Assembly (NCBI GenBank): GCA_903813345.2
Contig: CAIIXF020000001.1
Span: 13,330,001 to 13,394,000, forward strand
Reading direction: 5' to 3'
DNA length: 64,000 nucleotides
DNA from: Owenia fusiformis
Lineage: Eukaryota
Shown here piece by piece: positions 10,095 through 61,083 of this stretch. Positions within the stretch are counted from its first letter, which is position 1, and the number at the start of each line of letters is the position of its first letter. A program made the position numbers and the translations under genes. The notes beneath the pieces were generated by a model, which had not been told where the DNA came from, made no database searches, and saw nothing but the letters and a program-made list of their open reading frames with translations.

Positions 10095-10435
10095 TCTTTA
10101 TTTTTAGATGATCGGTCTTATCGGTTTATTCTATTCCTGAATAAATCAGTAGTGGAGGAACTCATACAACGTGTTGCGTAATCGACCTTCTGTCTAAATG
10201 TAGTGTCAAGTGTTGATTAGAGAAAATGGGCCGAGCCATAAGTTTTAAAGGACCATATTACATTTTAAGAAAAATGTTTTCGTGTGGAATTTCGTTCTGG
10301 AAATCAGAAACTCGTTCAAAATTGTTATAGTTCAAAATCTACACGAGAGAAAGAAGCGAACGAGTACATGTCAATATCACCGTGTATATTAAAATTGTAT
10401 TCCAAAAATATCATAGGATGTTATTTTGTACTTAA

Positions 10436-11817
10436 GGTATGAGTACCGTAATCCAACACCAAATTCGAAAATTCATATACACGTCGCACGAAACTGGGGA
10501 CAATTAGCGTAACATTATGGCGTCAAAAAAAACAAAACAAAACAATGAGCAGTATAGGGCGCAAACAGCCTTACAACGTCAAAAACGACAAGCGTCACAT
10601 TTTTTACAAGTTTAGTCAGCCTCAAAATAAAATACTTTATCCTTATCTAATCATTACAAAATTTACAGGGTAGCAAGATCTCGAGGACAATATTTCTAAA
10701 ATGTTTTTGAATTTTGAAAAACGGTCAAGAAATCCACTTGGGGCGTTAGTAAAAATTGATATGTATGGAATTTGTGGTAAAAAATCGATGCGTCACATTT
10801 TTTCAAGTCTCGAAAACCAGCTCTTATTTTGATATTATTTGCAAAATAAACAAACCGGTTATTGTTTTGTAAATTTCGCCATGACAATATTGTGCAGTTA
10901 AATTTTCTTTCAAATCAGACCTAAATTAGAAGGTTAAATGAAGGTAAACTTATTGCTCGTCCCATTCGCCTTCAAAACCTTACACAATTTTGAAAATTTT
11001 AAAAGCGTTCGTATAAGATAATTTGAAGTGTAGCCGTTAAGCAATTGTGACGTCATAAATGCAAATGTTCCATTGAATAAATTGTGAAATTTAAGTGGGA
11101 TTTTGATCATTATTTCAAAAGTTATCTCAATTTCAACGAGCCCTGTAAGCGTAAAGTGTTACGTCTTACAGCGTATTTGACGATGTCTGAGTATATTTAA
11201 CTTTAAAAATGTGTTGGATCCCATCAAAATTTTGAAGGAAAAATAATTTCATTGAAATGCGAATAAAAAATACTTTAAAATGATATGTAAAACACATAGT
11301 TGGCTTTTTAAATAAGGCAGAGATTAACGTTCAAAGCTGAGATAAGCCCGCATTTCCCGAATTGTCCCCAGGTCCGTGCACGTCATAATAACAATACTTT
11401 GCACATATGGCGTTCGTGACCAACTATAAAACGCTTACCCCCCATAGTGTTATATATCAAAATGTACCTGTTCATATAGGGGTTCGATTGATCTACATCA
11501 AATTATAGGGAGTCAGGTTACTTTTTGAGATATCAGCGTCCATTTATTGTAACTCGCGTTTGCCACCACTTCCTCAATTCTTATATGACGGGCAAACGCG
11601 TAGTAAACATGCTCACGTCGGAACTATTTTTGACCTACATCGCTATTTTCGTAATTCAAATGAAAGTTAAACTCCTCCTCTTTATTTTGATACCAAATAG
11701 TGGCATACTAGGTACCCTAGAAGCCAACTATGGCGTTATTTAGAACAATACCACAGGTTTTTAAATGGACTATATAGGGGTCATACCTTTTGGCGGATGG
11801 ATATGGAACCTCATACC
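10436..11817. mobile_element. Solo 469-bp direct-repeat unit (TTAA-GGTATGAG...CTCATACC-TT) interrupted by a nested MITE
   Basis: Near-identical to 19514-19982 and 20774-21242 once the 913-bp nested insertion (with its TSD) is removed. Confidence 0.85.
10478..11387. mobile_element. 910-bp MITE nested in the solo repeat
   Basis: Empty sites at ~19553 and ~20813 read TTCATAACAAT; the filled site duplicates ATA. Imperfect TIRs ...GCACGAAACTGGGGACAATT / AATTGTCCCCAGGTCCGTGC... Confidence 0.8.
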
Positions 11818-13206
11818 TTTAATGTATAGATATATCCTATGATCACATGATTAGGAGTGTCTAAGAATTTTGATTGGGATCAATTGTGATGATGTCTATT
11901 CCGTATCAAATGACACGTGACTAATTTTCATGTGATACGGTGGGCTGTATCACTACGGAGTCAATAGCAACGATGTGACGTCACTGATTATACCACTTAA
12001 GGAAAACAATATGACGTCATACTATTTCACAGACACGTACAAATACAACGGTATGACGTCATATTGTTTCAAAGCGAAATCAAAAATTATAATAGTTACC
12101 AGGAGTACAGGGTACTGAACACAATCATCTGACCAAATCAAAATGCTTCAAAATCCCTAGACATGTGATAAAATCGTCATCACACGTTTCAGCTTATGTG
12201 ATACAGGAAATATTCCACTCGGGTAAGAATGTATCACCACTCAAGCTTCGCTTTCGTGGATGATACAATATAACCTTTCGTGGAATATTAAATCGGCTCT
12301 CTGAGTACTTATCCTTAGAAGGTGACGAAGCATCGGGCACAGCTTGCTCATTGTTAGCAACGGATTCAAATTCCGTTTCCCCTAAAAATTCTGTCGTTGA
12401 CGATGACGATGGAAAATTGTCCAGCTCTCCAGACCTCTTTAGTTTTCTCAAGAAAAACATTTTAGTTATTAAAAAATCGCAATCCCAGCGACCTTATTCA
12501 GTATAACACAGACATTGGTCTCCTTAGCAGTGATTGATTTTAGTGTTTATAGTTCGCTCTTGCATTTAACCAGTTAAGTGAACACCAATGCAAGAACAAA
12601 TGAATTCCAAATGTGCTCATGCTCCGGCGTATATTACTTTAATCGAGGTCACCTCAATCCTCCAACGCATACGACTTATGGTACTACTAACATCTCTGAT
12701 ACCACACATCAATGCTTGATTCAACAATGTATTGTTTTAAAAAACATTTGTTCGAAGTGGAATTCATGAAAGCTGTTATTAAGGGGATAACTGAGGTACA
12801 TTTATCATACATTATTCAATGATAGCGCATTAACAAGATCATGTTCAATGATGATGGGTCCATTAACGATCAAATAACAAAACATGCGATTACTAGACGT
12901 GCCAATCATACAGTCATATAGGCCAATGAATTGTGATGCATAATGTAATTCACGATCATCTTTCGTTGATCACCGATGCTCCTTGGATTTTAGACAAACT
13001 GTTCTGTAGGATTCTGGTTTTCATAGGATAGACTGGTTTGATGATCTTGATCATACTGACCATAAAACATGTTATATTAAATGTTGAGTGAAGAAACTAA
13101 GAAAAATGTGGCAAAAGATTTAAAAAACACTGAAACAAACTGTAACAGGTACGCTTCTTGGCTTCATTATGATTTTTATTAATTACCATAACACTAACTG
13201 ATTTGA

Positions 13207-17690: not shown

Positions 17691-19172
17691 CTAAAAGCCG
17701 GGGGCAAACGAATAGATTTTCTCCATGGGGAAGTTTACACTGTTTTTACTGAATAGCGCCAACGCACTGTCCATCTTCTTCAATTTATATTTCTCAGTGA
17801 TATACTCGATGGACTCGGTAACAGTAAACGTGTTGAGCTCAATGGTAGAACCTTCGGGAATCTCCGATGATAGGAATTGAATCAGCCTATTAGCAATTTT
17901 TGCAGTATCAGCATAAAATGGTGCAACTCTGTAAACGTTCTTGATAAGATGTGCTATAAGGAACCCAACGATAATACCATCTTTAGTCGCAGATATGAGA
18001 TAATTTTCAGAGCCAACAGCAAACTCAGTTAGGAAAGCTTTACGATCTTGGAGTCCGGTGATTTCCTCATCATACGCTACTATATCATCAATTGATGCAG
18101 CAACACCACGACGGACAACTTCCACCGTTGAATCCACATCTAACGCCACATCTCTGTGTAACGAACCAAGAAATATTTCTGCATTGTAACCTTCGTGGAC
18201 AAATCCATACTTCTTGTAAAAATCAACAGTATGGATTTCGGCGTGTAGCCATGCATTACGATCCCCAATGCAGGACTTGTAGGCACATACTAGTTTCTTC
18301 CCAATGCCCTTACCACGGTGTTCTTTCTTCACAATGATTTTTCCTCCAAGTCCAATATCGGGACCTAAGATATTCCATGTAGCAAATCCTATAAGATTGA
18401 AAACTTAGGTATAACTAGACATTTGAATTAGCTATTGCTACTAGTAATTTGTTCAGGCCCATTTATGAGATTATTTGGGGTCAATAAAATGTAAAATCTG
18501 AAAAATATATGAGCATATGGTAGATAATAGATGTTAATGAAAAAATATATTGAATTTCAACTTTTGAAGGTCACAAAGGGTAAAAAGGTCAACTCTCAAA
18601 ATGGAGATCGGGTCAATCCTGGGGAATTCGTTTTATAGGTTTTTAGGTCAATATTTGTTAAAACAAGTTGAAATTTGATGAACTCACCAACGGGGCTGCC
18701 TGTATTATCTTCGGCAACAATGACCCCATCTCCATAGACTCTCTTGAACAACTAAAAATGATAATAAGATTTGAATTTTCGTTGAAAATTAACAGACTTT
18801 GACAAATAATCTAATAGGGACATCGCCAACCATTTTTGGAATAAGTAAGGTCACGTTACACTGAACCATGTATTTCCAATCTGAAATTATTTAACGTTAG
18901 GATTCGATGATAATTTTATCAATTTACTGCCTATTCATAGCCTAGATGACAATTCATTACCGTTACCTTGTTGAAGGTGAATCTGAATGGAATAGTAATG
19001 ACCTAATTACACAAAGCTCTGAGAACAATAGAACAGTCTACATAAGAGACTGAGTATTGTGCAAAATATTTACCTTGAGATCTTCAACATCATCTACCCA
19101 TCCATTCTCTTGATGCCAAGCAACAACCTCTTCAAAGTCCTCTTCCCGAGCTGGACGGATGGTTACATCCAT
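17691..19172 (-). CDS. GNAT acyltransferase paralog B, copy 2 (~286 aa)
   Basis: Exons 19172-19074, 18751-18688 and 18388-17691. Open frame; ends FAPGF because of a 3-bp insertion. Confidence 0.88.
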
Positions 19173-19513
19173 TCTTTATTTTTAGGTGATCGGTCTTATC
19201 GGTTTATTCTATTCCTGAATAAATCAGTAGTGGAGGAACTCATACAACGTGTTGCGTAATCGACCTTCTGTCTAAATGTAGTGTCAAGTGTTGATTAGAG
19301 AAAATGGGCCGAGCCATAAGTTTTAAAGGACCATATTACATTTTAAGAAAAATGTTTTCGTGTGGAATTTCGTTCTGGAAATCAGAAACTCGTTTAAAAT
19401 TGTTATAGTTCAAAATCTACACGAGAGAGTGAAGCGAACGAGTACATGTCAATATCACCGTGTATATTAAAATTGTATTCTGAAAATATCATAGGATGTT
19501 ATTTTGTACTTAA

Positions 19514-21242
19514 GGTATGAGTACCGTAATCCAACACCAAATTCGAAAATTCATAACAATACTTTGCACATATGGCGTTCGTGACCAACTATAAAACGCT
19601 TACCCCCCATAGTGTTATATATCAAAATGTACCTGTTCATATAGGGGTTCGATTGATCTACATCAAATTATAGGGAGTCAGGTTACTTTTTGAGATATCA
19701 GCGTCCATTTATTGTAACTCGTGTTTGCCACCACTTCCTCAATTCTTATATGACGGGCAAACGCGTAGTAAACATGCTCACGTCGGAACTATTTTTGACC
19801 TACATCGCTATTTTCGTAATTCAAATGAAAGTTAAACTCCTCCTCTTTATTTTGATACCAAATAGTGGCATACTAGGTACCCTAGAAGCCAACTATGGCG
19901 TTATTTAGAACAATACCACAGGTTTTTAAATGGACTATATAGGGGTCATACCTTTTGGCGGATGGATATGGAACCTCATACCTTAATGTTTTATGGCATC
20001 ACACTGATTTTTGTCTCTGCAACTTTTTTTGGTAGAAAATATCATTTTTAGTTCAAAAATGCATAAAAACGTCGGAACTGGCTGAATATGTGAAAAATTT
20101 ATCCATTTAGGCTAGAAAGTGTTAATTTGCCCTACCCCAAATACGTCTAAATATGCTAGTCTAACTTTGCCACTGTGACGTCACAAATCTAACCTGACTA
20201 TCTCTGAGTTTATTGAAGGAAATGATACGTCTGACAAACAGCTTTCATTCCCTATATGGCACACCTTCTACTAAGAGTTGCATCATTGACTAAATCTGAG
20301 ACAAAGGCCCTGTGTCCCGAGGATTTTGACTGAAATCTGGCCATTTTCGCCCAAATCTAAATAAATTGCAGTTTCCCTCACACCTGTATTTTGAAATAAA
20401 TATTGCTACAATGTAGCAATTTAAAGATCACACATGCTTACTGTTTCTGTCGACCTGACACGTGTATCTAGCCTGTAAAAATGAAAAATCGCTACATTGT
20501 AGCAATTTCACTGAGATATGGGCCCTGAAAATCATGTAATTTTAGCAAAAAATGAAGAAATAACCTGCAATTTTGACGGAATTTCAGAGGGCTTTCTTTC
20601 ATGCATGACCCTTCACGGGCCTCTTATGACCATTCTTATCCTCACAGAAGGGTTGAAAGTGATTTCAAATCATTGTTTGCCCTACGCAGAACGAAAAAAT
20701 CGATTCTGTTCTCAAATTATGCTAGAATATTGGTCTCTGGCCAACTAGCAGACAATTTTAGGCCTCATATTAAGGTATGAGTACCGTAATCCAACACCAA
20801 ATTCGAAAATTCATAACAATACTTTGCACATATGGCGTTCGTGACCAACTATAAAACGCTTACCCCCCATAGTGTTATATATCAAAATGTACCTGTTCAT
20901 ATAGGGGTTCGATTGATCTACATCAAATTATAGGGAGTCAGGTTACTTTTTGAGATATCAGCGTCCATTTATTGTAACTCGCGTTTGCCACCACTTCCTC
21001 AATTCTTATATGACGGGCAAACGCGTAGTAAACATGCTCACGTCGGAACTATTTTTGACCTACATCGCTATTTTCGTAATTCAAATGAAAGTTAAATTCC
21101 TCCTCTTTATTTTGATACCAAATAGTGGCATACTAGGTACCCTAGAAGCCAACTATGGCGTTATTTAGAACAATACCACAGGTTTTTAAATGGACTATAT
21201 AGGGGTCATACCTTTTGGCGGATGGATATGGAACCTCATACC
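19514..21242. mobile_element. Non-autonomous element with 469-bp long terminal direct repeats (Kolobok/KolobokP-like)
   Basis: Repeats at 19514-19982 and 20774-21242, each with an 8-bp TIR GGTATGAG/CTCATACC and TTAA on both sides. Non-coding 791-bp middle; no TG...CA ends, PBS or PPT. Confidence 0.75.
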
Positions 21243-21257
21243 TTAATGTATAGATAT

Positions 21258-22298
21258 GGAATTATTACGCCAAAAGTAGTGCGAAATGGCCTTTTCACGT
21301 GTTGGCATAAAGTTTTGATGACATTTAAAGACATAGTTCCTCTTTCACGTATATCATCTCATGGAAATGGGCATACCAGCGCAAAGATCTTTGTTCCGTG
21401 GTGAAGAAAAGCCATCAAACATTGTCTGAAGAGCAGATTTATCTCCGTAATTCTACTTTTAACATGGCGACCTTGACCTTGAAAAAATATAGCCATTTGG
21501 GCGATAATAGGTGATTCAAAAGTGAAAATGAGTGCTTTTTTCGTAGTTTTACTTTGACCAAGCCTAGAAAAAAAATCGAAGTGGTAAACCTACCCCCAAT
21601 TTTTAATATTTTCGTTGTCTAGAAGTGTCCTAGATGATATCAAAGTTTAAGAAAATTTGTATGTCTAGAAATATTTTATAAATTAGTGCCAATATGGTGG
21701 GTTTGGGTGTTTTTTTGCTCTCATTTTTTACCCCATTTCTACGGTTGCCATGGCAACTATAAGGCTTTGGTAACCATGCCAACTTGATTTTTGAAGGACA
21801 TCCACCTGATAGTAGTTGGGCCAAGTTTGATGGAAAATGGGCATGGTTTGATATGCTGGCAGTGAGGTTGATTGTGGCATGTAGTAAAACGGCAAAACAA
21901 TGGTGGAGTCATACCATTATTTTGCCGCATTTTGATGCTTAATTTTCAATTTATAATCGTTTGGTACCATCGTGACGTCACAATAAAGCGTCTGGCCTCA
22001 TGATATGGGTACCAAATTGAAGAGGACGTGACAAGCTTTAAGATGGTACCAAACATGTGGCCATTCATTTGATTAAAATGCTAACTTGAATAAGCCCAAA
22101 AGGTGTGTCACTCCCCTACCCCATCCATTTTCAGGCCAGTGAAAAACACCAAAATCTCAAATAATCCAGGCATCTTCAGGGGTCGTTTTTTGGCCCCGTT
22201 TTATTCAAAATATCATGTTTATGGATACCATTTTTATCAGAAATGTCTCAATTACCTAAAAACAGTTACACTAGTGCTGAATAAGAAAACATGTCTCC
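21258..22298. mobile_element. 1041-bp non-coding insertion with GGA...TCC ends and an ATAT duplication
   Basis: The empty site at ~11828 reads AGATATATCC; the filled site reads AG-ATAT-GGAATT...GTCTCC-ATAT-ATCC. Confidence 0.8.
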
Positions 22299-23209
22299 AT
22301 ATATCCTATGATCACATGATTAGGAGTGTCTAAGAATTTTGATTGGGATCAATTGTGATGATGTCTATTCCGTATCAAATGACACGTGACTAATTTTCAT
22401 GTGATACGGTGGGCTGTATCACTACGGAGTCAATAGCAACGATGTGACGTCACTGATTATACCACTTAAGGAAAACAATATGACGTCATACTATTTCACA
22501 GACACGTACAAATACAACGGTATGACGTCATATTGTTTCAAAGCGAAATCAAAAATTATAATAGTTACCAGGAGTACAGGGTACTGAACACAATCATCTG
22601 ACCAAATCAAAATGCTTCAAAATCCCTAGACATGTGATAAAATCGTCATCACACGTTTCAGCTTATGTGATACAGGAAATATTCCACTCGGGTAAGAATG
22701 TATCACCACTCAAGCTTCGCTTTCGTGGATGATACAATATAACCTTTCGTGGAATATTAAATCGGCTCTCTGAGTACTTATCCTTAGAAGGTGACGAAGC
22801 ATCGGGCACAGCTTGCTCATTGTTAGCAACGGATTCAAATTCCGTTTCCCCTAAAAATTCTGTCGTTGACGATGACGATGGAAAATTGTCCAGCTCTCCA
22901 GACCTCTTTAGTTTTCTCAAGAAAAACATTTTAGTTATTAAAAAATCGCAATCCCAGCGACCTTATTCAGTATAACACAGACATTGGTCTCCTTAGCAGT
23001 GATTGATTTTAGTGTTTATAGTTCGCTCTTGCATTTAACCAGTTAAGTGAACACCAATGCAAGAACAAATGAATTCCAAATGTGCTCATGCTCCGGCGTA
23101 TATTACTTTAATCGAGGTCACCTCAATCCTCCAACGCATACGACTTATGGTACTACTAACATCTCTGATACCACACATCAATGCTTGATTCAACAATGTA
23201 TTGTTTTAA

Positions 23210-25902
23210 CCAGAACAACGGCAACGCCAAAGCGTAGCGAATCCCATCGAACAGCCATGGAGGGCATTTTTACAAACAAAGGATATAGCAAAATGGCAGC
23301 CATTTTTCAAAATGGCCGCCTTCTACCAAAAGTGTCATTAGACCATGTGCCATGCTTATGGTATTCACATACCAAATATGAACAAAATCGCTCCACTACT
23401 TTTCAAGTTATAGTAAAAAACGTTAAAATGGCGGCCATTTTTCAAAATGGCCACCTTCTACCAAAAGTGCCATTAGGATATAGTCCTGAGTAAGGACACT
23501 AGCGGTTACCGTTAGTGATTTGGTTTTCTGTATAAAAAGTCATTTTTCTCCTTTCCTACCCCATTGGAGCGCCATTTGGCGTTTGGGAAGTGAATTGGGA
23601 CTAAATATTTATAAGGTAGGTCCTGATTTATCTGAAAACATGCCAAAGTTCAGTGGGAAATCTCATTTTAAGCTGGCGGCGGAGTGATTTTGACCTTGGT
23701 GATTTTACCAGAATTCTCTGAGAAATCTGACGATAGAGGGGGTTAGTGTCTTCAAGTTTATTTATCTCAAAAATTCGGTGGACATCCCATGGTAAGATTG
23801 TTATAGCAGTCTAGGCGAGTCTCTCCCGAACACTGTGGTATGTTGCACTAGGCTTGGATACTAATCGTTAATAAGATACAGGGTAAAATGTTATAATGGC
23901 CACCTATGGGAAACTCTACTGTGGTCTTCAACCTATTAGAAGGCGCATTTTTGGGGTATTTTGTAGGTTTTGTCCCCTTTTGAGGTTTTTAAGTTCATTA
24001 AGAAGCCTAATAGCGCATATCATATTAAAGGAATGTATCTTAGCTGAACAATGGTACCAAAATCGTGACATTTTGAAGCAACTTTAGTGTTTTGGGGGCG
24101 AGGCCATTGTGCCAAGTACCCCGAATTCCATTCTCCCGTGCCATTCAATTGTCTTCTGGGCAGTTTTGAATGAACCTTTGTTTCTCCCTAACGTTATGAC
24201 GTCATAATATGCAATTGAACGCCTTGACATGGATATCACTCGAAAGATAGTAGAAATCGCTTTCCAATGATACCCCATATGGCCATGTTCCCCTCAGTTG
24301 GGTGTACTCAATCTGTGATGCAAACTGTAAGGTGCACCCCTACCCCAAGGAAATCTCAAAATCAAATTTCCTGAATTTTGCTAAAAGGACCTGTGTCTAT
24401 AAGGATTGAATCTTCCCCCGTGCATTTTCTCAAATATAGCATTGATATATACCATTGTGATCGGGATAATGCCTACAATGCTAATATAACCATGTTGAAA
24501 GAAAACAAACTAATTCAGTTTACTATTAGGATATAGTCCTGAGTAAGGACACTAGCGGTTACCGTTAGTGATTTGGTTTTCTGTATAAAAAGTCATTTTT
24601 CTCCTTTCCTACCCCATTGGAGCGCCATTTGGCGTTTGGGAAGTGAATTGGGACTAAATATTTATAAGGTAGGTCCTGATTTATCTGAAAACATGCCAAA
24701 GTTCAGTGGGAAATCTCATTTTAAGCTGGCGGCGGAGTGATTTTGACCTTGGTGATTTTACCAGAATTCTCTGAGAAATCTGACGATAGAGGGGGTTAGT
24801 GTCTTCAAGTTTATTTATCTCAAAAATTCGGTGGACATCCCATGGTAAGATTGTTATAGCAGTCTAGGCGAGTCTCTCCCGAACACTGTGGTATGTTGCA
24901 CTAGGCTTGGATACTAATCGTTAATAAGATACAGGGTAAAATGTTATAATGGCCACCTATGGGAAACTCTACTGTGGTCTTCAACCATTAGACAGTGTGC
25001 CGTGCTTATAGTATTCACATACCAAATATAAACAAAATCGCTCCTCTACTTTTCGAGTAATAGTAAAATACGTTAAAATGGCGGCCATTTTGAAAAATGA
25101 CCGCCTTCTACCAAAAGTGTCATTAGACAGTGTGCGATGCTTACAGTATTCACATACCAAATATGAACAAAATCGCTTCACTACTTTTCGAGTTATAATA
25201 AAATACGTTAAAATGGTGCCAATTTTTAAAATCTTTTTCAAAATGGCCGCCTTCTACAAAAAGTGTCATAGGACAGTGTGTCATGCTTATAGTATTCACA
25301 TACCAAATATGAACAAAATCGCTCCACTACTTTTCGAGTTATAATAAAATACGTTAAAATGGTGGCCATTTTGAAAAATGGCGTCCATTTTTCAAAATGG
25401 CCGCCTTCTACTTAAAGTGTCTTAAGACAGTGTGCAATGTTTATAGTATTCACATACCAAATATGAACAAAATCGCTCCACTACTTCTCGAGTTACAGCA
25501 AAAATCGTAAAATAATGAATAAAGACCGCCATTTTTCAAGATGGCTGCCATGTGCTTCTTTAATATCTAAATTTCTAGCTTTATTAATGTCCTATATAGT
25601 TTTTTTACATCTAAAACATATTGCTATTACAGTTTTACATATTGCACCTAAATTACTGTAAATTCGGCACTAAAATGGCCGCCATTTTGAAATGAGTGGC
25701 CATTTTGAAAATCGGCTTTCGAGCAGAACTTCTACCCCCATAGGGTATATGTGTACAAAATATGAACAAAATCGGGCCAACGGTATTTGAGTTATTGCCC
25801 GGACGGACGGACGTACGTACGGACGGACGGACGGATGGACGTACGTACGTACGGACGGACGGAGGCGTTCCCTATATCCCTCCGAACTTCGTTCGATGGG
25901 AT
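23210..25902 (-). mobile_element. Helentron/HINE-like element with ~120-140 bp core tandem repeats, unit-3-specific
   Basis: Inserted in an A-run (empty site TTTTAAAAAACATT at ~12735) with no clear TSD. (GGAC/GTAC)n at 25801-25862, terminal hairpin at 25882-25897, and core repeats AAAATGGCCGCCTTCTACCAAAAGTG. Confidence 0.75.
23476..24986. mobile_element. Non-coding element with 458-bp long terminal direct repeats and an ATTA target duplication
   Basis: Repeats at 23476-23933 and 24529-24986 (GGATATAG...CTTCAACC) look identical by eye, with a 595-bp middle. It splits the host core repeat CATTAGACAG. Confidence 0.8.
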
Positions 25903-26378
25903 AAAAAACATTTGTTCGAAGTGGAATTCATGAAAGCTGTTACTAAGGGGATAACTGAGGTACATTTATCATACATTATTTAATGATAGCGCATTAACAA
26001 GATCATGTTCAATGATGATGGGTCCATTGACAATCAAATAACAAAACATGCGATTACTAGACGTGCCAATCATACAGTCATATAGGCCAATGAATTGTGA
26101 TGCATAATGCATCATGTAATTCACGATCATCTTTCGTTGATCACCGATGCTCCTGGGATTTTAGACAAACTGTTCTGTAGGATTCTGGTTTTCATAGGAT
26201 AGACTGGTTTGATGATCTTGATCATACTGCTGACCATAAAACATGTTATATTAAATGTTGAGTGAAGAAACTAAGAAAAATGTGGCAAAAGAAGAAAAAC
26301 ACTGAAACAAACTGTAACAGGTACCCTTCTTGGCTTCATTATGATTTTTATTTAGTACCATAACACTAACTGATTTGA

Positions 26379-34111: not shown

Positions 34112-37100
34112 GCTTTATTTTTAGATGATCGGTCTTATCGGTTTATTCTATTCGTGAATAAATCAGTAGTGGAGGAACTCACACAACGTGTTGTTCAATC
34201 GATCTTCTGTCTAAATGTAGTGTCAAGTGTTGATTAGAGAAAATGGGCCGAACCATAAGTTAAAAGAACCATATTACATTTTAAGAAAAATGTTTTTGTT
34301 TGGAATTTTGAAGGGGTTTTAATAGGTGAAAGGGGGTTCTGGAAATCAGAAACTCGTTCTGGTCCCAAATCGTTTAAGTTCAAAATCTGCACGAGAGAGA
34401 TAGGATGTTCCTATTATCCTACACTTAGTGTACTAAATGTTTAGAAATATCCTAATAAAGGAAATATCCTATATGGTTTTGAAAAAAATATCATTTATAT
34501 CTATGAGTGTATTGGTATCTTCACGAATGAGCGCACCGAATGAGCCCAATTGAGTGAAGATTGATACCCATGCTATTGATATCCATGTGTGGATATAATC
34601 GATATTTTCGAAAAACCATACAAGTGTCCGTTTATCTCTTTAAAATGATTACCCCCCCGTTTATCTCATTAAAATTATTACCCAGCAAAAAATGTTGAGA
34701 AATGTGAAAAAGATTTTGAGAAAATTTGAAAAATGAGGAAAAATTTGTGTGGATATAATTGATATTTTTGAAAAACATTTAAGTCTCCGTTACCTCATGG
34801 AAAATTATTACCCAGCAAAAAAATGTTGAAAAATTTGAAAAGATATGAAAAGAAATTTGAAAAATTGTAGAAAAATGGAATGCTTTTTAATTTTGGGAAA
34901 ACCTTAATATGCTTGCAAGTATGGAATAAAAACAAATTCACCGGCCTGTTTACGCAAACACCTGTAAAATAGACTTAAAGGGACGCGGGGTGGAATCATG
35001 GGCTCTGATAGAGCCCATGGTGGAATCAAAGATTTGTCCGCTGTTGGGCAGCAAGCTATTTTTCATAAAAACACCTACAAAAAGTTCATATTATTTTCTA
35101 ACTCGTATCTTTGTACGCACCAAAGAAAATTACAAATGTACCTGTCCTATGCATGCATGGGTATATCATTTGCGGGTAACCTTCACTTCTATTTGAAGTT
35201 CAGTAAGCTAGGAGTAAAAGCCGCTTGAAAACGGTGCTAGAGTATCATACTCTAAAACGTACCATTTTTTAACGTTTTAATGGCTTTCAGTGTCTGAAGG
35301 TATCCTAGAATCTAGATGTTTTGGGGGTTTTCATTTGTATTTATAAAAATTAATGATTAAATCACTCTCGGGATAGTTATCAGTGCACCAAATAAGAAAT
35401 GAAAATAAACACTGGATTTTTGAATTGATTAAATAAATATTATCTTAAATTATCTTATCTGTCATTACATTGGGCACATTTTCTGAAAACTGGCAGTGTG
35501 CCTTTCTGTTTAGAGATCTTTCCGAAAGGATAAATATTTTTCAGTCACAACTTCAGAGGGCTCAAAAAGCTGTTCCATCCTCAGGCCATCCTGTTTTGGA
35601 TAACTTTAACCATGAAAATTGCAATCCTGGTTATGTATGTTTGTTTATGTTTAAACAAACGTATGAGACGCTAAAGTTGCTCCGATTTGATGGAAAAACT
35701 TTCTAAAGTCCGTTTACACTCCCCTTAAATGATTGATGAGTGCCTGCCGGGTGCGAGGTCGGGCCCGGCCGAGTGAGGACCTCTTGTTGTAAACGCCCCA
35801 TCCACTGTGATATACACAGTGGAACACCCGTAACAGAACACCTTCCCCAAGGTTGGTGCCTGGTAGTTAAATAATACCAATGCAGACTTCATCAATTGGT
35901 CAAAATAATAACTTACAAGAGGATTGCAGGTTTGATACTGTGCATTCCCTCATTGTAAAACTCCCAATTACCGGCCAAGTGCAAGTACCGATCGACAACC
36001 AAGGATAGGTATAAAAGGGTCAAAAGTTTAAAAAAATTATTGATGGAGCCAACTGGCATTTCGCCTTAGCCACAGCCATCTTGAACATGTAAATGATATG
36101 TCTAGTGAAACTTAGTAAAAATGACTTTAAGCTATGTTCACACCAACGGCGAATGCCACGCTTTAAATCGGCAAGCAAAGCAACCATTGCATCTTTGACT
36201 CGAGAACACGATGGCAGAACAAGATCCAAAAATTCCAGATGGACCACAGCATGACCTATCTGAAGAAGACATGATGTTTGTCGTACGGCGTGAAAGAGCA
36301 CGAGAGCGTGAGGAAGCTTGTCAAGCGTAACAAAGCCTAACAAAGCGTTTCAATCCTTGATTAAAGCGTCTCAATTCGTTGGAAAGCTTGAAAGTCCTTC
36401 ATGAAAGCGTAACAAAGAGTGTCAGATATTGATGAAAGCGTCTGACATCGTGTCAGATCTCATGCCAGATCGTAGCAAATCTTGAGACATCTTAACGAAG
36501 CGTGTCAAGTGGTAAGCCTAACAGACGGTGAAGAGAATGGGGTCCCCGCTTTGAACCAAGCTCTGTTTAGCTTTCCTACGCTTAAGGTCAAGCTTTGCTG
36601 AGCTTTGTTACGGTTTGTTAAGCTTTGATACGCTCTCGGCGCTTAGGCCTAAATCAATTCGTAACAGCACGGGTAACAGAAGGCCCAAAATTTTTAAACA
36701 GTTTAAAAGTTTTTGGCGCTCTTGCCGAATACCCCGCTTTACTCCGAGCTTCGCTAAGACCTATTACGGCCCTTGATCAAGATTTTTTACGCTTTGGTGC
36801 CGCTTTATAAGCCGCTTTGAAGGGCCATAAAAAGCGCCGTTGGTGTGAACGTAGTGTAACGACCCATCAGTCTGTCTTCTCTTTTCAATGGCTTATATCT
36901 GGCCTGATGTGCCGTTACTGAGCCTTATTATTGCATTGCTTTAGTCAAAATAACTAACAATTTCACTGTTCACCAGTATGGAGTTTTACTGTATTATATA
37001 TGTCCTGTATTTGCATGTATTCTGTGGCCAGCGCCTTCATAGCGCCAATGCTAGTTTTGTTTACAGTTAATGCAGAGTGCATCTGTACTTTGCTGGCTAA

Positions 37101-38267
37101 GCCTATAGCGACTGGACATCGCCTTGTAATTGTATGAATTTTGTCTGTTAACTTTAGTAAGAGTCACCATGAGTCATAGGCTGTGTAGCCCGTCCACTAC
37201 TTCAGTTTTTGCAGTTACTCAGCTTAAGGATATAGTTCCATTGTTTATATCGCCTTGTTGTGATTATTTTGACCTATGTACGCTATTTAGTGTGTCTAAT
37301 TTATTGTATACATGTTTATATATATGTACATAACTCTACTGTGCTTCGAATTGTCTTATTTTAAAGTGTAGTTCATCTTGTTATGTGAGTAGTGATATGT
37401 AATCATGTTGTGTGATCAGTCTCTTGGAAATCTCAAAATGGTGGAACACAGGTTGCTAATTTCTCTTCAATTAAATTGGATTTATAGCAGTTTCCGTTCG
37501 TTAATCGAGGTGAATGGTGTTCTAAGGTAATTATGAAGTAGTTATTTAATTGGTCAAGAAGTTTCAACGCATTTCATTAACTGATTCAGTTGTTATTTAG
37601 AGTCAAACTTTTGATGTGATTTCCATGTAACTTTGAGTTTAAATCATGTCTTTTCTTGTTAAAATCTACCTCTTATTACGGTAATTATGCTTAATTGTTA
37701 GTGTTAATTATACCCAGTATACCGGTAGAACACGTATTGGTACCAGGGTCCCGTTTTGGAGTGAGTTTTGGGGTGATTCAAGCCATCCCAATGTACGGTA
37801 ATGGAAGCTGCAGATGGCTGTCAGGTTGCTAGCCAAATGTAGCTAGGCTCTAGTTGGAGCCATTTGCAGCCATGTAGGAGTTGCATGGTATTTGGGTATA
37901 TTTTACACTACATAAGTCAGATCTTATTCGTTATGTAACATAACTTGTATTAATGAATGATTTCCAATTGAAATAGAATTAATTAATGTTAATCTTTAAT
38001 TGCTTTTATTATGTTGTTTTATTGTGTTGGTGAGATTAACACTTATACATACACCCCCCCCCCCCCCCCCCCGACTAACATTGACTATTAACATGGACTG
38101 CGACATTTAGACTTCCCCTAATCAACGCCCCCTCCCTCAGTCACACTGGCTGTTATGCCGTATGTGACTAGTCACTCACCCCCCTCACATTCGCACTTTC
38201 CCAGATACGAGCTACAAGTGGCTACACAATTGGTGTGTGAATATAGGTGACCAGGCTGACCCCCCCT

Positions 38268-39290
38268 GGCTACATTTAGCTGCAGCCCTATAGTAACTAG
38301 TTAGTTGTCCCACACCACCCTTGGTCCGAGGCTACATTGGGCTGCAACCCTATATTGACTATTGAGGTGTCCCATACCACCCTATACCCGGGGCTACATT
38401 AGGCTGCAACCCTATATTGACTAGTGAGGTGTCCAATACCACCCTATACCCGGGGCTACATCAGGCTGCAACCCTATATTAGCTAGTGGGTTGTCCCATA
38501 CCACCCTTGGTCCAGGGCTACATTAGGCTGCAACCCTATATTAACTAGTGAGGTGTCCAATACCACCCTATACCCGGGGCTACATCAGGCTGCAACCCTA
38601 TATTAACTAGTGAGGTGTCCAATACCACCCTATACCCGGGGCTACATCAGGCTGCAACCCTATATTAACTTGTGAGGTGTCCCATACCACCCTATACCTG
38701 GGGCTACATTAGGCTGCAACCCTATATTGACTAGTGAGGTGTCCCATACCACCCTATACCCGGGGCTACATTAGGCTGCAACCCTATATTGACTAGTGAG
38801 GTGTCCCATACCACCCTATACCCGGGGCTACATTAGGCTGCAACCCTATATTGACTAGTGAGGTGTCCCATACCACCCTTTACCCGGGGCTACATTAGGC
38901 TGCAACCCTATATTGACTAGTGAGGTGTCCCATACCACCCTATACCCGGGGCTACATTAGGCTGCAACCCTATATTGACTAGTGAGGTGTCCCATACCAC
39001 CCTATACCCGGGGCTACATTAGGCTGCAACCCTATATTGACTAGTGAGGTGTCCCATACCACCCTATACCCGGGGCTACATTAGGCTGCAACCCTATATT
39101 GACTAGTGAGGTGTCCCATACCACCCTATACCCGGGGCTACATTAGGCTGCAACCCTATATTGACTAGTGAGGTGTCCCATACCACCCCATACCCGGGGC
39201 TACATCAGGCTGCAACCCTATACCAACTAGTAGGGTCCCCATACCACTCTATTCCCTGGGCTACATTGGGCTACACCCCTCTGGTATCAA
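38268..39290. repeat. 62-bp tandem array (~16 units) in the 5' LTR
   Basis: Unit GGGGCTACATTAGGCTGCAACCCTATATTGACTAGTGAGGTGTCCCATACCACCCTATACCC, with degenerate units at both edges. Confidence 0.95.
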
Positions 39291-39576
39291 GTGAGGTGAC
39301 CAATACCATTTCTCATCCTTGACTACACATAGTTATAACCCCAATGTATGTAGCAGGATGATCCTATTGACTTATCCTTACTGACTACATGTGACTTTAC
39401 TCTCACATATTAATACGGACTTAATACAGACTTATAAACCCACATGTAATTGTTTTATTATTAAATGATAATGTTGAAATGATACTGCTTTGGGAATAAG
39501 ATAACAGTCTGGGACTGTGTTATGCCAAGGCCATGCTACACTTGTATGGCAGATACATGGCCCAGGATTGTTACAC

Positions 39577-39594: not shown

Positions 39595-42500
39595 TTAATT
39601 ATTACCTAATAATTAGACCCACTTTATGTTTTTATTAAATATTCTAAAGTAGTGTTGTTTTCAGTTGTTTAATGGTGTCAACTTTTTGTTTGATGCTAAT
39701 TTAATCTTGTTTTCCACACTGGTGCGTGTGGATGGCCATTTTGGGATTTTCAGAGACCCAGTCCATGTAGCATTCCACAGGACTGTATCGATTTAGGTTG
39801 GTGAAGTAGCCCGTTGTTCTACTTCCAAGTGTAAAGTGGTACGTATCTTTACCACAGACCCTCTGGTTTGGTATGTAGGTGGGACCTAATATACAAACAT
39901 ATCAAATCTTCCCAAGCCAAAATTGTAGATCCCAGTTGTAAAACCCTGTCTTATCATGACCCACCAGAACATCTAGAGTGTCATGTCTTGAAAGCACATA
40001 CATTATGCATTTGTTGGTGTGGATGTCTCCTGTACCCTGTTCTCGTCCTGTTAGTGAGTTTCTTTCGATGATGGTCATGCTGGGCATGATTATAATCGAG
40101 AGATAGCTTGGGTAGACGTACCCATACAGTGACCCGAATATGCCCCTCCCCTTACATTCCACTTGCCCGAAATGTGTGTGATGGTACGATCCTCTTGTGC
40201 TTTCCTGGTTGATGAGGAAACGTTGTACTATATCTCCCTACAACTGGAGATCTCCATAGCCATATCAGAACGTCTGGTATACTTTTTCTTTTGCCTACTC
40301 CAACAAAAGACCCCAGCAAAACCTGTCCGACTGGTATAGAGCCATTGACTTGGGTAGGGTGGTCCAGGAAGCCCCTGCCCAGTGATCATACTTCTAACCA
40401 GTCCCAACATATTTGTGTGCACCTGTCCCATATCGTATATAGGTGACTAGGAAAGTTGTCTATTGGGAAATAGTCATTATATGACTGATAATGGGAGTAG
40501 CGATAATGGAATGTCCGAAGGATGACCTAATTGGTCTGATCAAGTCCAACTGGCAAACCTATTCAACTTTGTAGAAGTAGGTCACCATGCATACAACCAT
40601 CTTATGTGTCAATGGTGGTCCCTTTCATTGAACTGATTTGGGATCTGTTATTTATACGGTCTGATAGATATTTGAGCTACTGCCTCGATCTTGGCAAGTG
40701 GTATTGCCAAGATTAGTTACCAAAATGTTGATAGTGGACTGTCAGTGGAAGTGAGCATGTCTGGACATAGCTTTTGCTGGCGTCAATCAGCTTTTGTTCC
40801 AAGGAGGGCTGATTGTCACAAGTCCCCTATGTGGAGTGTTATCAGTCAACAATCCATGTACCATCTGATGTGGCTGACATTTACCACATATGTATGTGGC
40901 ATTTACTACGAGAGTAAATGTCATTTGCTATGTGTGTACATGTATCCTTGGCGACTTATATTTCCTGAGAAGCCGCGGGGTTGTTGTGTTTCTTAAGAGT
41001 GGAACCCTAATTATAGCTAGATGGTTTGAGTGGCCTGTGCTACCTGTTGTCCCTACTGTCTCTGATTGCCAATATCATGTAAATATTGATTAATATTGAC
41101 ACATTGAATAAAGCTTCCCTTAGCGTTCCCCCCTTTAGTGATGTTGATACCTCCACACGGGAAGATGGTTCCCATAGATCCGAAGAGTTGCTAAATAAAC
41201 CCCAAGTTTACATCTCTGATAATGATGGCGTCAGGATAATGTACAGTCTCTGGTGCCTCATTGATTTATCCTTTCCATTATTGATTACCAACTGAAGTAA
41301 TGAGAAAAGACTGTCTACCCAAACTGTTACCTTGTTGCCCTAGTAGATGACCTAGGCTCAACCGTTACACAATTGGAGTAATTGTGAACGTAATGTTTGA
41401 GGCAGAGTTCCCTTGTACATAGTGTATATAATTGTGATGGTGCCGAAAGCTGTCAGTAAAACATTGCACCAACTGTAAAATGTTATCTCCATCCCTCAAT
41501 GGTCCCTAAATGCCTAACTCCAGCAATGTCACTTAGCTGTAGCCTATTTTGTCTTGTCCCACAGTCTTAAGGTAGGCGGACATTGAATATGTGTGTGGTT
41601 ACCATGGTTGACGATCCCTGGAGCTAGTATAGATATGAATGTCTATGTAACGTGTCTCCACAAGAGACTTATTCGTTGGCTGGCAATGGGAGGAAGTTGT
41701 AGCTATTGTAGATTGGAACATCCGCATAGCAATGATACGAGAGTGGAGTTTCTCTTCCAGGTTTAGAGATGTCGACCACAAGCCAACAATATAGAGAGAC
41801 ATTAAGAGGACATTCTGTAACCATACACCAAGGATTATTGGAGAAGCTTACTACATATATTTGATCTTCATACTGTATTTGATGTGCTATATATGAACTT
41901 ATGACTATCTCTGTTATACAGAGGCGTTACCAGGGTACGCAGTGTTCTGGATACGACTAGTGCCAACTTAGTATAAAATGACTAAACATTCATTGGAATT
42001 CTAAGAAGAAAACAATCTTAATGACTATAGCTACAAAATACATGTGCTATTCTGAACTCTTGATATTAATATAAATGTGGTTTCTTCATACGAATATTGT
42101 AATGACATGTTTTTTCAGGTGATGCAAGTCATAAATGTATAACCATGTAAACTACTGTATTATTATGCACCTTTGAGATCATATCTTCACATTGAATTAC
42201 AAACTTATCATGTATATTTTTGATTTATCTTTTAATTATTTTGTAACAATTGTGTAAAAGTTCGGGACGAACTTATTTCAAAGAAGGGGGCAGTGTAACG
42301 ACCCATCAGTCTGTCTTCTCTTTTCAATGGCTTATATCTGGCCTGATGTGCCGTTACTGAGCCTTATTATTGCATTGCTTTAGTCAAAATAACTAACAAT
42401 TTCACTGTTCACCAGTATGGAGTTTTACTGTATTATATATGTCCTGTATTTGCATGTATTCTGTGGCCAGCGCCTTCATAGCGCCAATGCTAGTTTTGTT

Positions 42501-43700
42501 TACAGTTAATGCAGAGTGCATCTGTACTTTGCTGGCTAAGCCTATAGCGACTGGACATCGCCTTGTAATTGTATGAATTTTGTCTGTTAACTTTAGTAAG
42601 AGTCACCATGAGTCATAGGCTGTGTAGCCCGTCCACTACTTCAGTTTTTGCAGTTACTCAGCTTAAGGATATAGTTCCATTGTTTATATCGCCTTGTTGT
42701 GATTATTTTGACCTATGTACGCTATTTAGTGTGTCTAATTTATTGTATACATGTTTATATATATGTACATAACTCTACTGTGCTTCGAATTGTCTTATTT
42801 TAAAGTGTAGTTCATCTTGTTATGTGAGTAGTGATATGTAATCATGTTGTGTGATCAGTCTCTTGGAAATCTCAAAATGGTGGAACACAGGTTGCTAATT
42901 TCTCTTCAATTAAATTGGATTTATAGCAGTTTCCGTTCGTTAATCGAGGTGAATGGTGTTCTAAGGTAATTATGAAGTAGTTATTTAATTGGTCAAGAAG
43001 TTTCAACGCATTTCATTAACTGATTCAGTTGTTATTTAGAGTCAAACTTTTGATGTGATTTCCATGTAACTTTGAGTTTAAATCATGTCTTTTCTTGTTA
43101 AAATCTACCTCTTATTACGGTAATTATGCTTAATTGTTAGTGTTAATTATACCCAGTATACCGGTAGAACACGTATTGGTACCAGGGTCCCGTTTTGGAG
43201 TGAGTTTTGGGGTGATTCAAGCCATCCCAATGTACGGTAATGGAAGCTGCAGATGGCTGTCAGGTTGCTAGCCAAATGTAGCTAGGCTCTAGTTGGAGCC
43301 ATTTGCAGCCATGTAGGAGTTGCATGGTATTTGGGTATATTTTACACTACATAAGTCAGATCTTATTCGTTATGTAACATAACTTGTATTAATGAATGAT
43401 TTCCAATTGAAATAGAATTAATTAATGTTAATCTTTAATTGCTTTTATTATGTTGTTTTATTGTGTTGGTGAGATTAACACTTATACATACACCCCCCCC
43501 CCCCGACTAACATTGACTATTAACATGGACTGCGACATTTAGACTTCCCCTAATCAACGCCCCCTCCCTCAGTCACACTGGCTGTTATGCCGTATGTGAC
43601 TAGTCACTCACCCCCCTCACATTCGCACTTTCCCAGATACGAGCTACAAGTGGCTACACAATTGGTGTGTGAATATAGGTGACCAGGCTGACCCCCCCCT

Positions 43701-44723
43701 GGCTACATTTAGCTGCAGCCCTATAGTAACTAGTTAGTTGTCCCACACCACCCTTGGTCCGAGGCTACATTGGGCTGCAACCCTATATTGACTATTGAGG
43801 TGTCCCATACCACCCTATACCCGGGGCTACATTAGGCTGCAACCCTATATTGACTAGTGAGGTGTCCAATACCACCCTATACCCGGGGCTACATCAGGCT
43901 GCAACCCTATATTAGCTAGTGGGTTGTCCCATACCACCCTTGGTCCAGGGCTACATTAGGCTGCAACCCTATATTAACTAGTGAGGTGTCCAATACCACC
44001 CTATACCCGGGGCTACATCAGGCTGCAACCCTATATTAACTAGTGAGGTGTCCAATACCACCCTATACCCGGGGCTACATCAGGCTGCAACCCTATATTA
44101 ACTTGTGAGGTGTCCCATACCACCCTATACCTGGGGCTACATTAGGCTGCAACCCTATATTGACTAGTGAGGTGTCCCATACCACCCTATACCCGGGGCT
44201 ACATTAGGCTGCAACCCTATATTGACTAGTGAGGTGTCCCATACCACCCTATACCCGGGGCTACATTAGGCTGCAACCCTATATTGACTAGTGAGGTGTC
44301 CCATACCACCCTTTACCCGGGGCTACATTAGGCTGCAACCCTATATTGACTAGTGAGGTGTCCCATACCACCCTATACCCGGGGCTACATTAGGCTGCAA
44401 CCCTATATTGACTAGTGAGGTGTCCCATACCACCCTATACCCGGGGCTACATTAGGCTGCAACCCTATATTGACTAGTGAGGTGTCCCATACCACCCTAT
44501 ACCCGGGGCTACATTAGGCTGCAACCCTATATTGACTAGTGAGGTGTCCCATACCACCCTATACCCGGGGCTACATTAGGCTGCAACCCTATATTGACTA
44601 GTGAGGTGTCCCATACCACCCCATACCCGGGGCTACATCAGGCTGCAACCCTATACCAACTAGTAGGGTCCCCATACCACTCTATTCCCTGGGCTACATT
44701 GGGCTACACCCCTCTGGTATCAA
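43701..44723. repeat. 62-bp tandem array (~16 units) in the 3' LTR
   Basis: Same unit, same apparent copy number and same order of variant units as in the 5' LTR. Confidence 0.95.
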
Positions 44724-45204
44724 GTGAGGTGACCAATACCATTTCTCATCCTTGACTACACATAGTTATAACCCCAATGTATGTAGCAGGATGATCCTAT
44801 TGACTTATCCTTACTGACTACATGTGACTTTACTCTCACATATTAATACGGACTTAATACAGACTTATAAACCCACATGTAATTGTTTTATTATTAAATG
44901 ATAATGTTGAAATGATACTGCTTTGGGAATAAGATAACAGTCTGGGACTGTGTTATGCCAAGGCCATGCTACACTTGTATGGCAGATACATGGCCCAGGA
45001 TTGTTACAGTAGCTTTAACTAAGAATAAGACGCTGTTATCTTCGTATCCAGCATGTTTTTCACTACCTACCAGTGTTTGGTACAATTCTGATAACTACCC
45101 AAAGGTTAAATAGATAGGAGAACGCAGAATTCCCGATACATACCTCTAACTTGAATTTTGCGATTTCTTTTTAGAAGAATTATCGTAGTGACACCTTAAT
45201 GTGA

Positions 45205-45775: not shown

Positions 45776-61083
<15,308 letters not shown>

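Follow-up and report, generated by a model that had tools for sequence, protein, structure and literature searches.

The window, the whole 64-kb stretch of DNA analyzed here, contains three tandem units of ~9-10 kb each, which start at about positions 2472, 12289, and 22758. Two GNAT acetyltransferase-like frames lie on the minus strand of every unit. In the second unit, positions 19514 to 21242 are occupied by a 1,729-bp element in which two 469-bp long terminal direct repeats (LTDRs) flank a 791-bp internal region (INT, or I) (Table 1).

The element and its paralogous sites

An earlier note made from the sequence alone had described this repeat-middle-repeat arrangement, with each repeat a TTAA-bounded mini-transposon in its own right, and both the layout and the inverted ends bear the description out. 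Each LTDR starts with GGTATGAG and finishes with CTCATACC, and TTAA brackets each repeat. The inverted ends match perfectly over 8 bases, or over 12 nucleotides when TTAA is counted, and agree at 13 of the first 19 bases. The two LTDRs are 99.6% identical, without indels; the only substitutions between them, at 19722 (T/C) and 19837 (C/T), are the two that the same note had counted. Because repeats of 469 bp are this similar, a chance origin of the pair is of no concern. The 3' end of the INT (CCTCATA-TTAA) is similar to the 3' end of the LTDR (CCTCATACC-TTAA), and its 5' end has no match to the LTDR 5' end past the common TTAA. Measured from stop to stop, no frame that overlaps the element exceeds 92 amino acids. 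Within the window, the LTDR is found three times and the middle once.

The third LTDR is located in unit 1, 9,078 bp upstream, where the same outer flanks as at the full element enclose a single LTDR between positions 10436 and 11817. The earlier note recognized this solo copy correctly but missed two of its features. First, the interval is 1,382 bp long rather than 469 bp, owing to a nested 910-bp element positioned directly after LTDR position 42. Second, the right junction reads CC-T-TTAA, with one T more. The difference between the full and solo sites amounts to precisely one LTDR+INT period of 1,260 bp, and both TTAAs are present at each. The solo LTDR differs from either LTDR of the full copy by one substitution and carries the family consensus base at both of their private sites, and the three LTDRs form a star with pairwise differences at one or two sites.

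In unit 3, 17 of 19 bases of the right flank are found directly after a single 4-mer, TAAA; the match is short and diverged. The left flank, judged by eye, is represented by its last four bases (GTAC) only. This arrangement is probably an empty site.

Two other insertions lie nearby. The LTDR and internal motifs of a second, unrelated KolobokP element (23476-24986) match the KolobokP-2N1_OwFu consensus in the supplement of PMC9587614 only when reverse-complemented, and its plus-strand motifs gave no matches among the consensus records of that supplement. A 1,041-bp insertion with an ATAT duplication is present in unit 2 at 21258-22298; in the motif look-up, three 14-nucleotide motifs from its ends had no matches, and one 11-nucleotide motif had a single unrelated match.

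Table 1. Coordinates of the full element, the solo copy, and related features in the window
Feature	Position	Strand	Remarks
Solo LTDR, piece 1	10432..10477	+	TTAA plus LTDR positions 1-42
Nested 910-bp TIR element inside the solo LTDR	10478..11387	.	3-bp ATA duplication; TIRs match at 20 of the first 28 bases
Solo LTDR, piece 2	11388..11822	+	LTDR positions 40-469, then T-TTAA
Left TTAA target-site duplication, full element	19510..19513	+	Same TTAA and left flank at the solo copy
Left LTDR	19514..19982	+	469 bp; GG...CC termini; 8-bp perfect TIR
Internal region (INT/I), noncoding	19983..20773	+	791 bp with both terminal TTAAs, 783 bp excluding them
Right LTDR	20774..21242	+	469 bp; 2 substitutions relative to the left LTDR
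Right TTAA target-site duplication	21243..21246	+	4 bp
Second, unrelated KolobokP element	23476..24986	-	LTDR 458 - INT 595 - LTDR 458; ATTA duplication; LTDRs identical
Probable empty paralogous site, third tandem unit	34430..34454 (about)	+	GTAC-TAAA-TGTTTAGAAATATCCTA

Assignment to a published transposon family

The earlier note had pointed to a KolobokP subgroup with long terminal direct repeats, and this lead proved correct. KolobokP elements were described by Kojima and Bao (2022, Mob DNA 13:24; PMC9587614) and are defined there by an internal region between two LTDRs of ~450 or ~660 bp. The LTDRs have their own short TIRs and 5'-RR...YY-3' ends, target-site duplications (TSDs) measure 3 to 5 bp depending on the family, and solo LTDRs and multimers are plentiful (PMC9587614). 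The element in the window has the same LTDR-INT-LTDR architecture (469-791-469 bp), an LTDR length within the first of the two classes (469 bp), an 8-bp perfect TIR belonging to the LTDR itself, and GG...CC ends, and the full copy, like the solo copy, is flanked by TTAA on either side. The text of the paper gives TIRs of 11 to 18 bp for the oyster families, and Table S1 lists a TIR of 8 for KolobokP-4N1_OwFu (PMC9587614). In a literature search, KolobokP as a name occurred only in Kojima and Bao's article and in a 2026 review.

Motifs from the window were looked up as text in supplementary file 3 of PMC9587614, where they match the records KolobokP-4N1_OwFu-LTDR (1 to 469) and KolobokP-4N1_OwFu-I (791 bp). 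The comparison with these records was made by eye rather than with an aligner, with all 7 LTDR lines and all 12 I lines visible, and the match extends over the full length of both. By this count, the left LTDR differs from its consensus at 9 of 469 positions and the middle at 17 of 791, in both cases without indels, making the window copy ~98% identical to both parts. Eight of the LTDR departures are common to all three LTDRs in the window. Each LTDR of the full copy has one further, private difference, and the solo LTDR has the eight only.

The entry for KolobokP-4N1_OwFu in Table S1 gives a full length of 1729, an LTDR of 469, a TSD of 4, and a TIR of 8; the family is listed as nonautonomous, and the species is the annelid Owenia fusiformis (PMC9587614). 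From these sequence matches, 19514-21242 is almost certainly a full-length, plus-oriented copy of KolobokP-4N1_OwFu, a published nonautonomous KolobokP family of Kolobok. The window copy shows no difference of kind from the family; it has 8 LTDR and 17 INT departures from the consensus and is adjoined by a paralogous solo copy. A nonautonomous compound element, as the earlier note had proposed, fits both the absence of any frame longer than 92 amino acids and the listing of the family. The family, its consensus, copy numbers, and solo repeats, and models for the origin of these states are already in print (PMC9587614).

The autonomous partner, KolobokP-4_OwFu, is known here from its row in Table S1 (4,421 bp, LTDR 469/466, TSD 4, TIR 8) and from consensus passages (PMC9587614). 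In those passages, the last 49 bases of its LTDR are the same as in KolobokP-4N1_OwFu, the first 18 differ at one position, and related stretches are present in the 5' part of the internal region. The window copy differs from it in having no long frame. Since the LTDR of KolobokP-4_OwFu has the same terminal sequences in the passages compared, we infer that the window copy would have been moved in trans by the DDD/E transposase of this partner.

Two better-known systems resemble this organization. The solo LTRs of LTR retrotransposons likewise retain one terminal repeat and the target duplication of the original insertion once the two direct repeats have recombined, an analogy that is drawn in PMC9587614 too. 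The present element, in contrast, is a DNA transposon with no reverse transcription, and each of its repeats has TIRs of its own and may be mobile by itself. In bacterial composite transposons and IS26-type pseudo-compound elements, an internal segment is enclosed by two copies of a small TIR-bounded unit in direct orientation, and the entire structure is mobilized through its outer ends, a comparison also discussed in PMC9587614. In KolobokP, however, it is the internal region of the autonomous partner, not the flanking units, that carries the transposase, and the architecture is described as belonging to an old and stable lineage and not as having been assembled opportunistically (PMC9587614).

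Direct terminal repeats, a short noncoding middle, a 4-bp duplication, and a solo repeat would also suit a small LTR retrotransposon (TRIM-like) or a retrozyme-like element, yet the probability of either is negligible. The consensus matched here belongs to a family of DNA transposons, and the autonomous partner is described as encoding a DDD/E transposase (PMC9587614). The ends are GG...CC with an 8-bp TIR rather than TG...CA, and inspection by eye revealed neither a tRNA-type primer site 3' of the left repeat nor a purine tract 5' of the right repeat, which sets the element apart from LTR retrotransposons and TRIMs. Across the whole window, no match to an Rfam family attained its gathering score, and no ribozyme was found among the Rfam matches up to E = 5 in 19300-25200. 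As Rfam detected no hammerhead ribozyme in the repeats, the element does not qualify as a retrozyme. PiggyBac elements have a TTAA duplication and CCC...GGG termini; here the TTAA is present but the termini are GG...CC.

The single occurrence of the middle within the window would be expected if two independent MITEs had inserted on either side of single-copy host DNA and a local deletion had followed in unit 1. The earlier note had named this alternative, in which the middle would be single-copy and never flanked by the repeats elsewhere. The middle is not single-copy, since Table S1 lists 347 copies of the I consensus, alongside 673 copies of the LTDR (PMC9587614), and raw reads agree, with middle depths in the hundreds. 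The internal region also recurs joined to LTDRs elsewhere, lying between them at many loci of the authors' list (PMC9587614). Listed copies, read depth, and LTDR-flanked loci all contradict the two-MITE scenario, which is left with next to no probability.

Part of the stretch is contained in 17 of 22 public runs. Reads of a second sample bearing the same species label (three raw-read runs) and the Logan contigs of run X1 were placed at 90% likeness on 18900-20769, a stretch with one LTDR only; the X1 contigs yield no usable depth. In the raw reads, depth per column was ~0-1 in most bins of the left flank and ~1-4 in the last flank bin, rose to ~280-570 over the LTDR, and was ~100-420 over most of the middle, falling to ~1 in its last 170 bp. 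About 400 reads per run extend past the LTDR 5' end, where they have a sequence in common, with an agreement of 0.83 to 0.85. This common sequence resembles the 3' end of the INT, from which it differs at 5 of 30 positions by eye. Going by this resemblance, many LTDRs in the read sample have on their 5' side a related internal region whose own 3' end has diverged.

At the private sites of the window copy (e.g., 19729, 19834, 19996, 20033, and 20120), most reads have the consensus base. Most placed reads are only 90-95% alike (6,240 of 8,255 placed reads in X20). Given this likeness and the near absence of the flank, the read sample differs from the source of the window, and depth is therefore not convertible to copy number. 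The read sample seems to lack the locus or to have diverged there.

The states of the family across loci were counted by eye in supplementary file 4 of PMC9587614, in one of about ten parts, which covers 105 of the 1,020 KolobokP-4N1_OwFu rows. This part holds 54 loci, and the two incomplete loci at its ends were left out. Among the 52 loci counted, 34 were solo LTDRs, 7 were LTDR-I-LTDR monomers, 3 were (LTDR-I)2-LTDR dimers, 2 were LTDR-I-I-LTDR, and 6 were one-sided combinations of I and LTDR. The sampled solo LTDRs were mostly 94-96% identical to the consensus, with 5 of 34 reaching at least 97.5%, and in 6 of the 7 monomers the LTDRs were at least 97.4% identical to it. Within this 52-locus sample, the figures suggest that solo copies are older than monomers.

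Relationship between the full and solo states

Insertion of the copy into its TTAA would postdate the separation of the third tandem unit. In unit 1, recombination or unequal exchange between the two LTDRs of a full copy would then have deleted 1,260 bp and left the solo LTDR. We favor this order, with some reserve, because exactly one LTDR+INT period is gone and both TTAAs are kept. Direct-repeat recombination is also the first route named for solo LTDRs in PMC9587614. Plain homologous recombination would not be expected to add a T at the right junction, as seen in the solo copy, and the consensus base of the solo LTDR at both sites where the LTDRs differ fits either direction, from full to solo or from solo to full. 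There is a small but appreciable probability that neither direction applies.

The reverse order, in which the solo LTDR is the older state and the full copy of unit 2 arose by integration of an LTDR-INT circle or by nuclease-induced repair copying one period, is unlikely, although it holds a real share of the probability. These routes, models b1 and c of Fig. 5 in PMC9587614, were proposed by the authors of that paper and leave the TTAAs unchanged, as observed, and a star of LTDRs separated by one or two sites per pair leaves the order of events unset. A crossover with a foreign circle, however, predicts reciprocal chimeric LTDRs. The private differences of the full copy (LTDR position 209 on the left and 324 on the right) cannot be placed around one crossover, and both must then be later mutations. 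Moreover, the incoming LTDR must carry all eight departures from the consensus; the donor would therefore be a very close relative, most simply at this same locus. Finally, the circle model is called speculative in PMC9587614, where no circle is reported as demonstrated for the KolobokP lineage.

The shared departures also bear on the possibility that the same TTAA was hit twice, the solo LTDR and the full element having inserted independently in the two paralogous units. The family is abundant, with its 673 LTDR copies, and solo LTDRs have been argued to be able to transpose alone (PMC9587614). Nevertheless, the three LTDRs have the same eight departures and differ mutually at one or two sites, and no strong target preference is reported in PMC9587614, which makes two hits on the same tetranucleotide unlikely. 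We consider independent insertion very improbable.

The earlier note had envisaged a collapse to a solo repeat either by recombination or by excision using the inner TIR. The first of these matches the loss of one 1,260-bp period; the second would not yield a solo LTDR and has only the faintest chance of being correct. The similarity between the 3' ends of the INT and the LTDR, together with the 1-bp change at the right junction of the solo copy, would be in keeping with transposase excision at an inner end. However, the INT 5' end lacks any match to the LTDR 5' end beyond TTAA, and pairing of a left with a right end removes one LTDR or the whole element, leaving INT-LTDR, LTDR-INT, or an empty site. 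The LTDR excision products reported in PMC9587614 are INT-LTDR, LTDR-INT, and solo INT, with 1 to 5 bp lost on one side, whereas here an LTDR is left with both TTAAs and 1 bp is gained rather than lost.

Recombination between the LTDRs of a full copy is retained as the preferred origin of the solo state. Taken as a whole, the reading of the locus as a full-length KolobokP-4N1_OwFu copy with a related solo LTDR in unit 1 is very probably correct.

Sequence exchange between the two sites

The solo and full copies lie at the left edge of a ~2.3-kb block that is nearly identical between the junction of units 1 and 2 and the junction of units 2 and 3. Beginning with the LTDR, the block continues through a junction filler of 449 bp and 451 bp into the following unit, where it ends at a 2.7-kb insertion in unit 3; farther to the right, identity between units 2 and 3 is 95.9%. 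Within the block, the only differences are the 1,260-bp period, one insertion in each unit (the nested 910-bp element in unit 1 and the 1,041-bp insertion in unit 2), the one-base T, and two private substitutions.

The last 1,500 bp of the left flank differ between units 1 and 2 by 11 substitutions (99.3% identity); a comparison of the sequence left of the LTDR that counts gaps gave 97.8%. At the rate of 11 substitutions in 1,500 bp, 10.2 substitutions would be expected in the 1,387 bp made up of the LTDR and 918 bp of right flank, as opposed to the single substitution found (Poisson P of ~4e-4). The step in identity at the left edge of the LTDR is significant but modest. The deficit of substitutions indicates that the two sites exchanged sequence recently, and an account built on insertion, duplication, and collapse is therefore incomplete.

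Because of the pattern of the near-identical block, we retain as a doubtful possibility, of low probability, that the LTDR is a recombination hotspot which also homogenizes neighboring host DNA between paralogous units. If this were true, breaks made in or at the LTDRs by the His-Me nuclease of the family and repaired from the paralogue would amount to flank co-conversion, as in intron homing, with an LTDR-INT period being gained or lost as a by-product of repair.

With the family and the models already published (PMC9587614), the locus has little discovery value. It does illustrate that a reader's lead can be checked directly against the supplementary consensus file of a paper. Its worth, which is modest, is that of a worked example, in which one insertion is found full and solo at paralogous sites, with a probable empty third. 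In the near-identical block, three changes the size of transposable elements (the 1,260-bp period and the 910-bp and 1,041-bp insertions) stand against only two or three changes of single positions, which shows that tandem gene arrays of young age can be remodeled fast by such elements.

Tandem gene units and their insertions

The features surrounding the two KolobokP elements are listed in the table. Two GNAT acetyltransferase-like frames lie on the minus strand of each tandem unit, in all three units (1, 2 and 3, starting at about 2472, 12289 and 22758), and between-unit identity is a mosaic that ranges from 90% to 100%. The stretches 11830-12740 and 22299-23209 are identical across 911 bp. 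Both copies of the 2.7-kb duplication contain a tandem array with a 62-bp period, repeated 16.8 times.

Features of the window in addition to the full-length copy of KolobokP-4N1_OwFu (LTDR, long terminal direct repeat; INT, internal region)
Feature	Position	Strand	Remarks
Tandem unit of about 9-10 kb, three copies	2472-34454
910-bp non-coding element	10478-11387		nested in solo LTDR (unit 1)
1,041-bp insertion	21258-22298		unit 2 only; 11 bp to the right of the TTAA of the full element
2.7-kb insertion	23210-25903		unit 3 only; carries second KolobokP element
Second KolobokP element	23476-24986	minus	LTDR 458 - INT 595 - LTDR 458
2.7-kb direct duplication	36853-39575 and 42292-45008		99.7% identity
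99-bp x 5 array	46403-46897		separate from the 2.7-kb duplication

Two further insertions lie within the solo LTDR and beside the full element, respectively. The nested 910-bp element has a 3-bp ATA duplication and terminal inverted repeats (TIRs) that agree at 20 of the 28 first bases. The 1,041-bp insertion is bordered by a 4-bp duplication, ATAT, and has GG...CC termini; no clear TIR was seen at its ends, and a motif look-up found no match for it in the KolobokP supplement of Kojima and Bao (2022; PMC9587614).

A second KolobokP element in unit 3

Besides the second KolobokP element, the insertion specific to unit 3 contains 2.8 copies of a 146-bp satellite and, close to its right end, a GGAC/GTAC-type microsatellite. 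The 146-bp satellite is the host of the element, which is flanked by an ATTA duplication; ATTA occurs once in the uninterrupted satellite copies. Motifs of both the LTDR and the internal region match KolobokP-2N1_OwFu in the PMC9587614 supplement, where that family is given as 3,784 bp long with an LTDR of 458, a TSD of 3 and copies of LTDR 0 / I 3, and where LTDR copies are present inside the printed internal consensus. The 1,511-bp length of the monomer in the window has no counterpart among the Table S1 lengths covered.

A palindromic word, TGACGTCA, is present exactly or nearly in the INTs of both KolobokP elements (positions include 20174-20183 and 24208-24217). It or a close variant also occurs in the 910-bp nested element, in the 1,041-bp insertion and, near 11975, in the host flank. 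The recurrence may be due to chance or to a regulatory role common to these sequences.

The internal region in raw reads

Raw reads of one other sample labeled as the same species (runs X20-X22) were compared with window 18900-20769 at 90% likeness. Read depth was about 1 over the last 170 bp of the INT (20601-20769) as opposed to 100-420 over the remaining INT, and LTDRs in these reads are preceded by a diverged form of the 3' end of the INT; the sample therefore carries a different subfamily of the element. The host flank of the full element is almost absent from it.

Likeness of paired LTDRs

The LTDRs of the second KolobokP element differ at 0 of 458 positions. Among the 105 of 1,020 hit rows of KolobokP-4N1_OwFu in part 302 of supplementary file 4 (PMC9587614), four of seven monomers have two LTDRs that are equal in both identity value and score when compared with the consensus, even though the copies with equal-scoring LTDRs stand 0.4-2.4% off that consensus. 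Thus, the two LTDRs of one copy seem to be kept alike, in the monomers of this part as in both elements of the window. Simple cut-and-paste transposition would not reset the LTDR pair.
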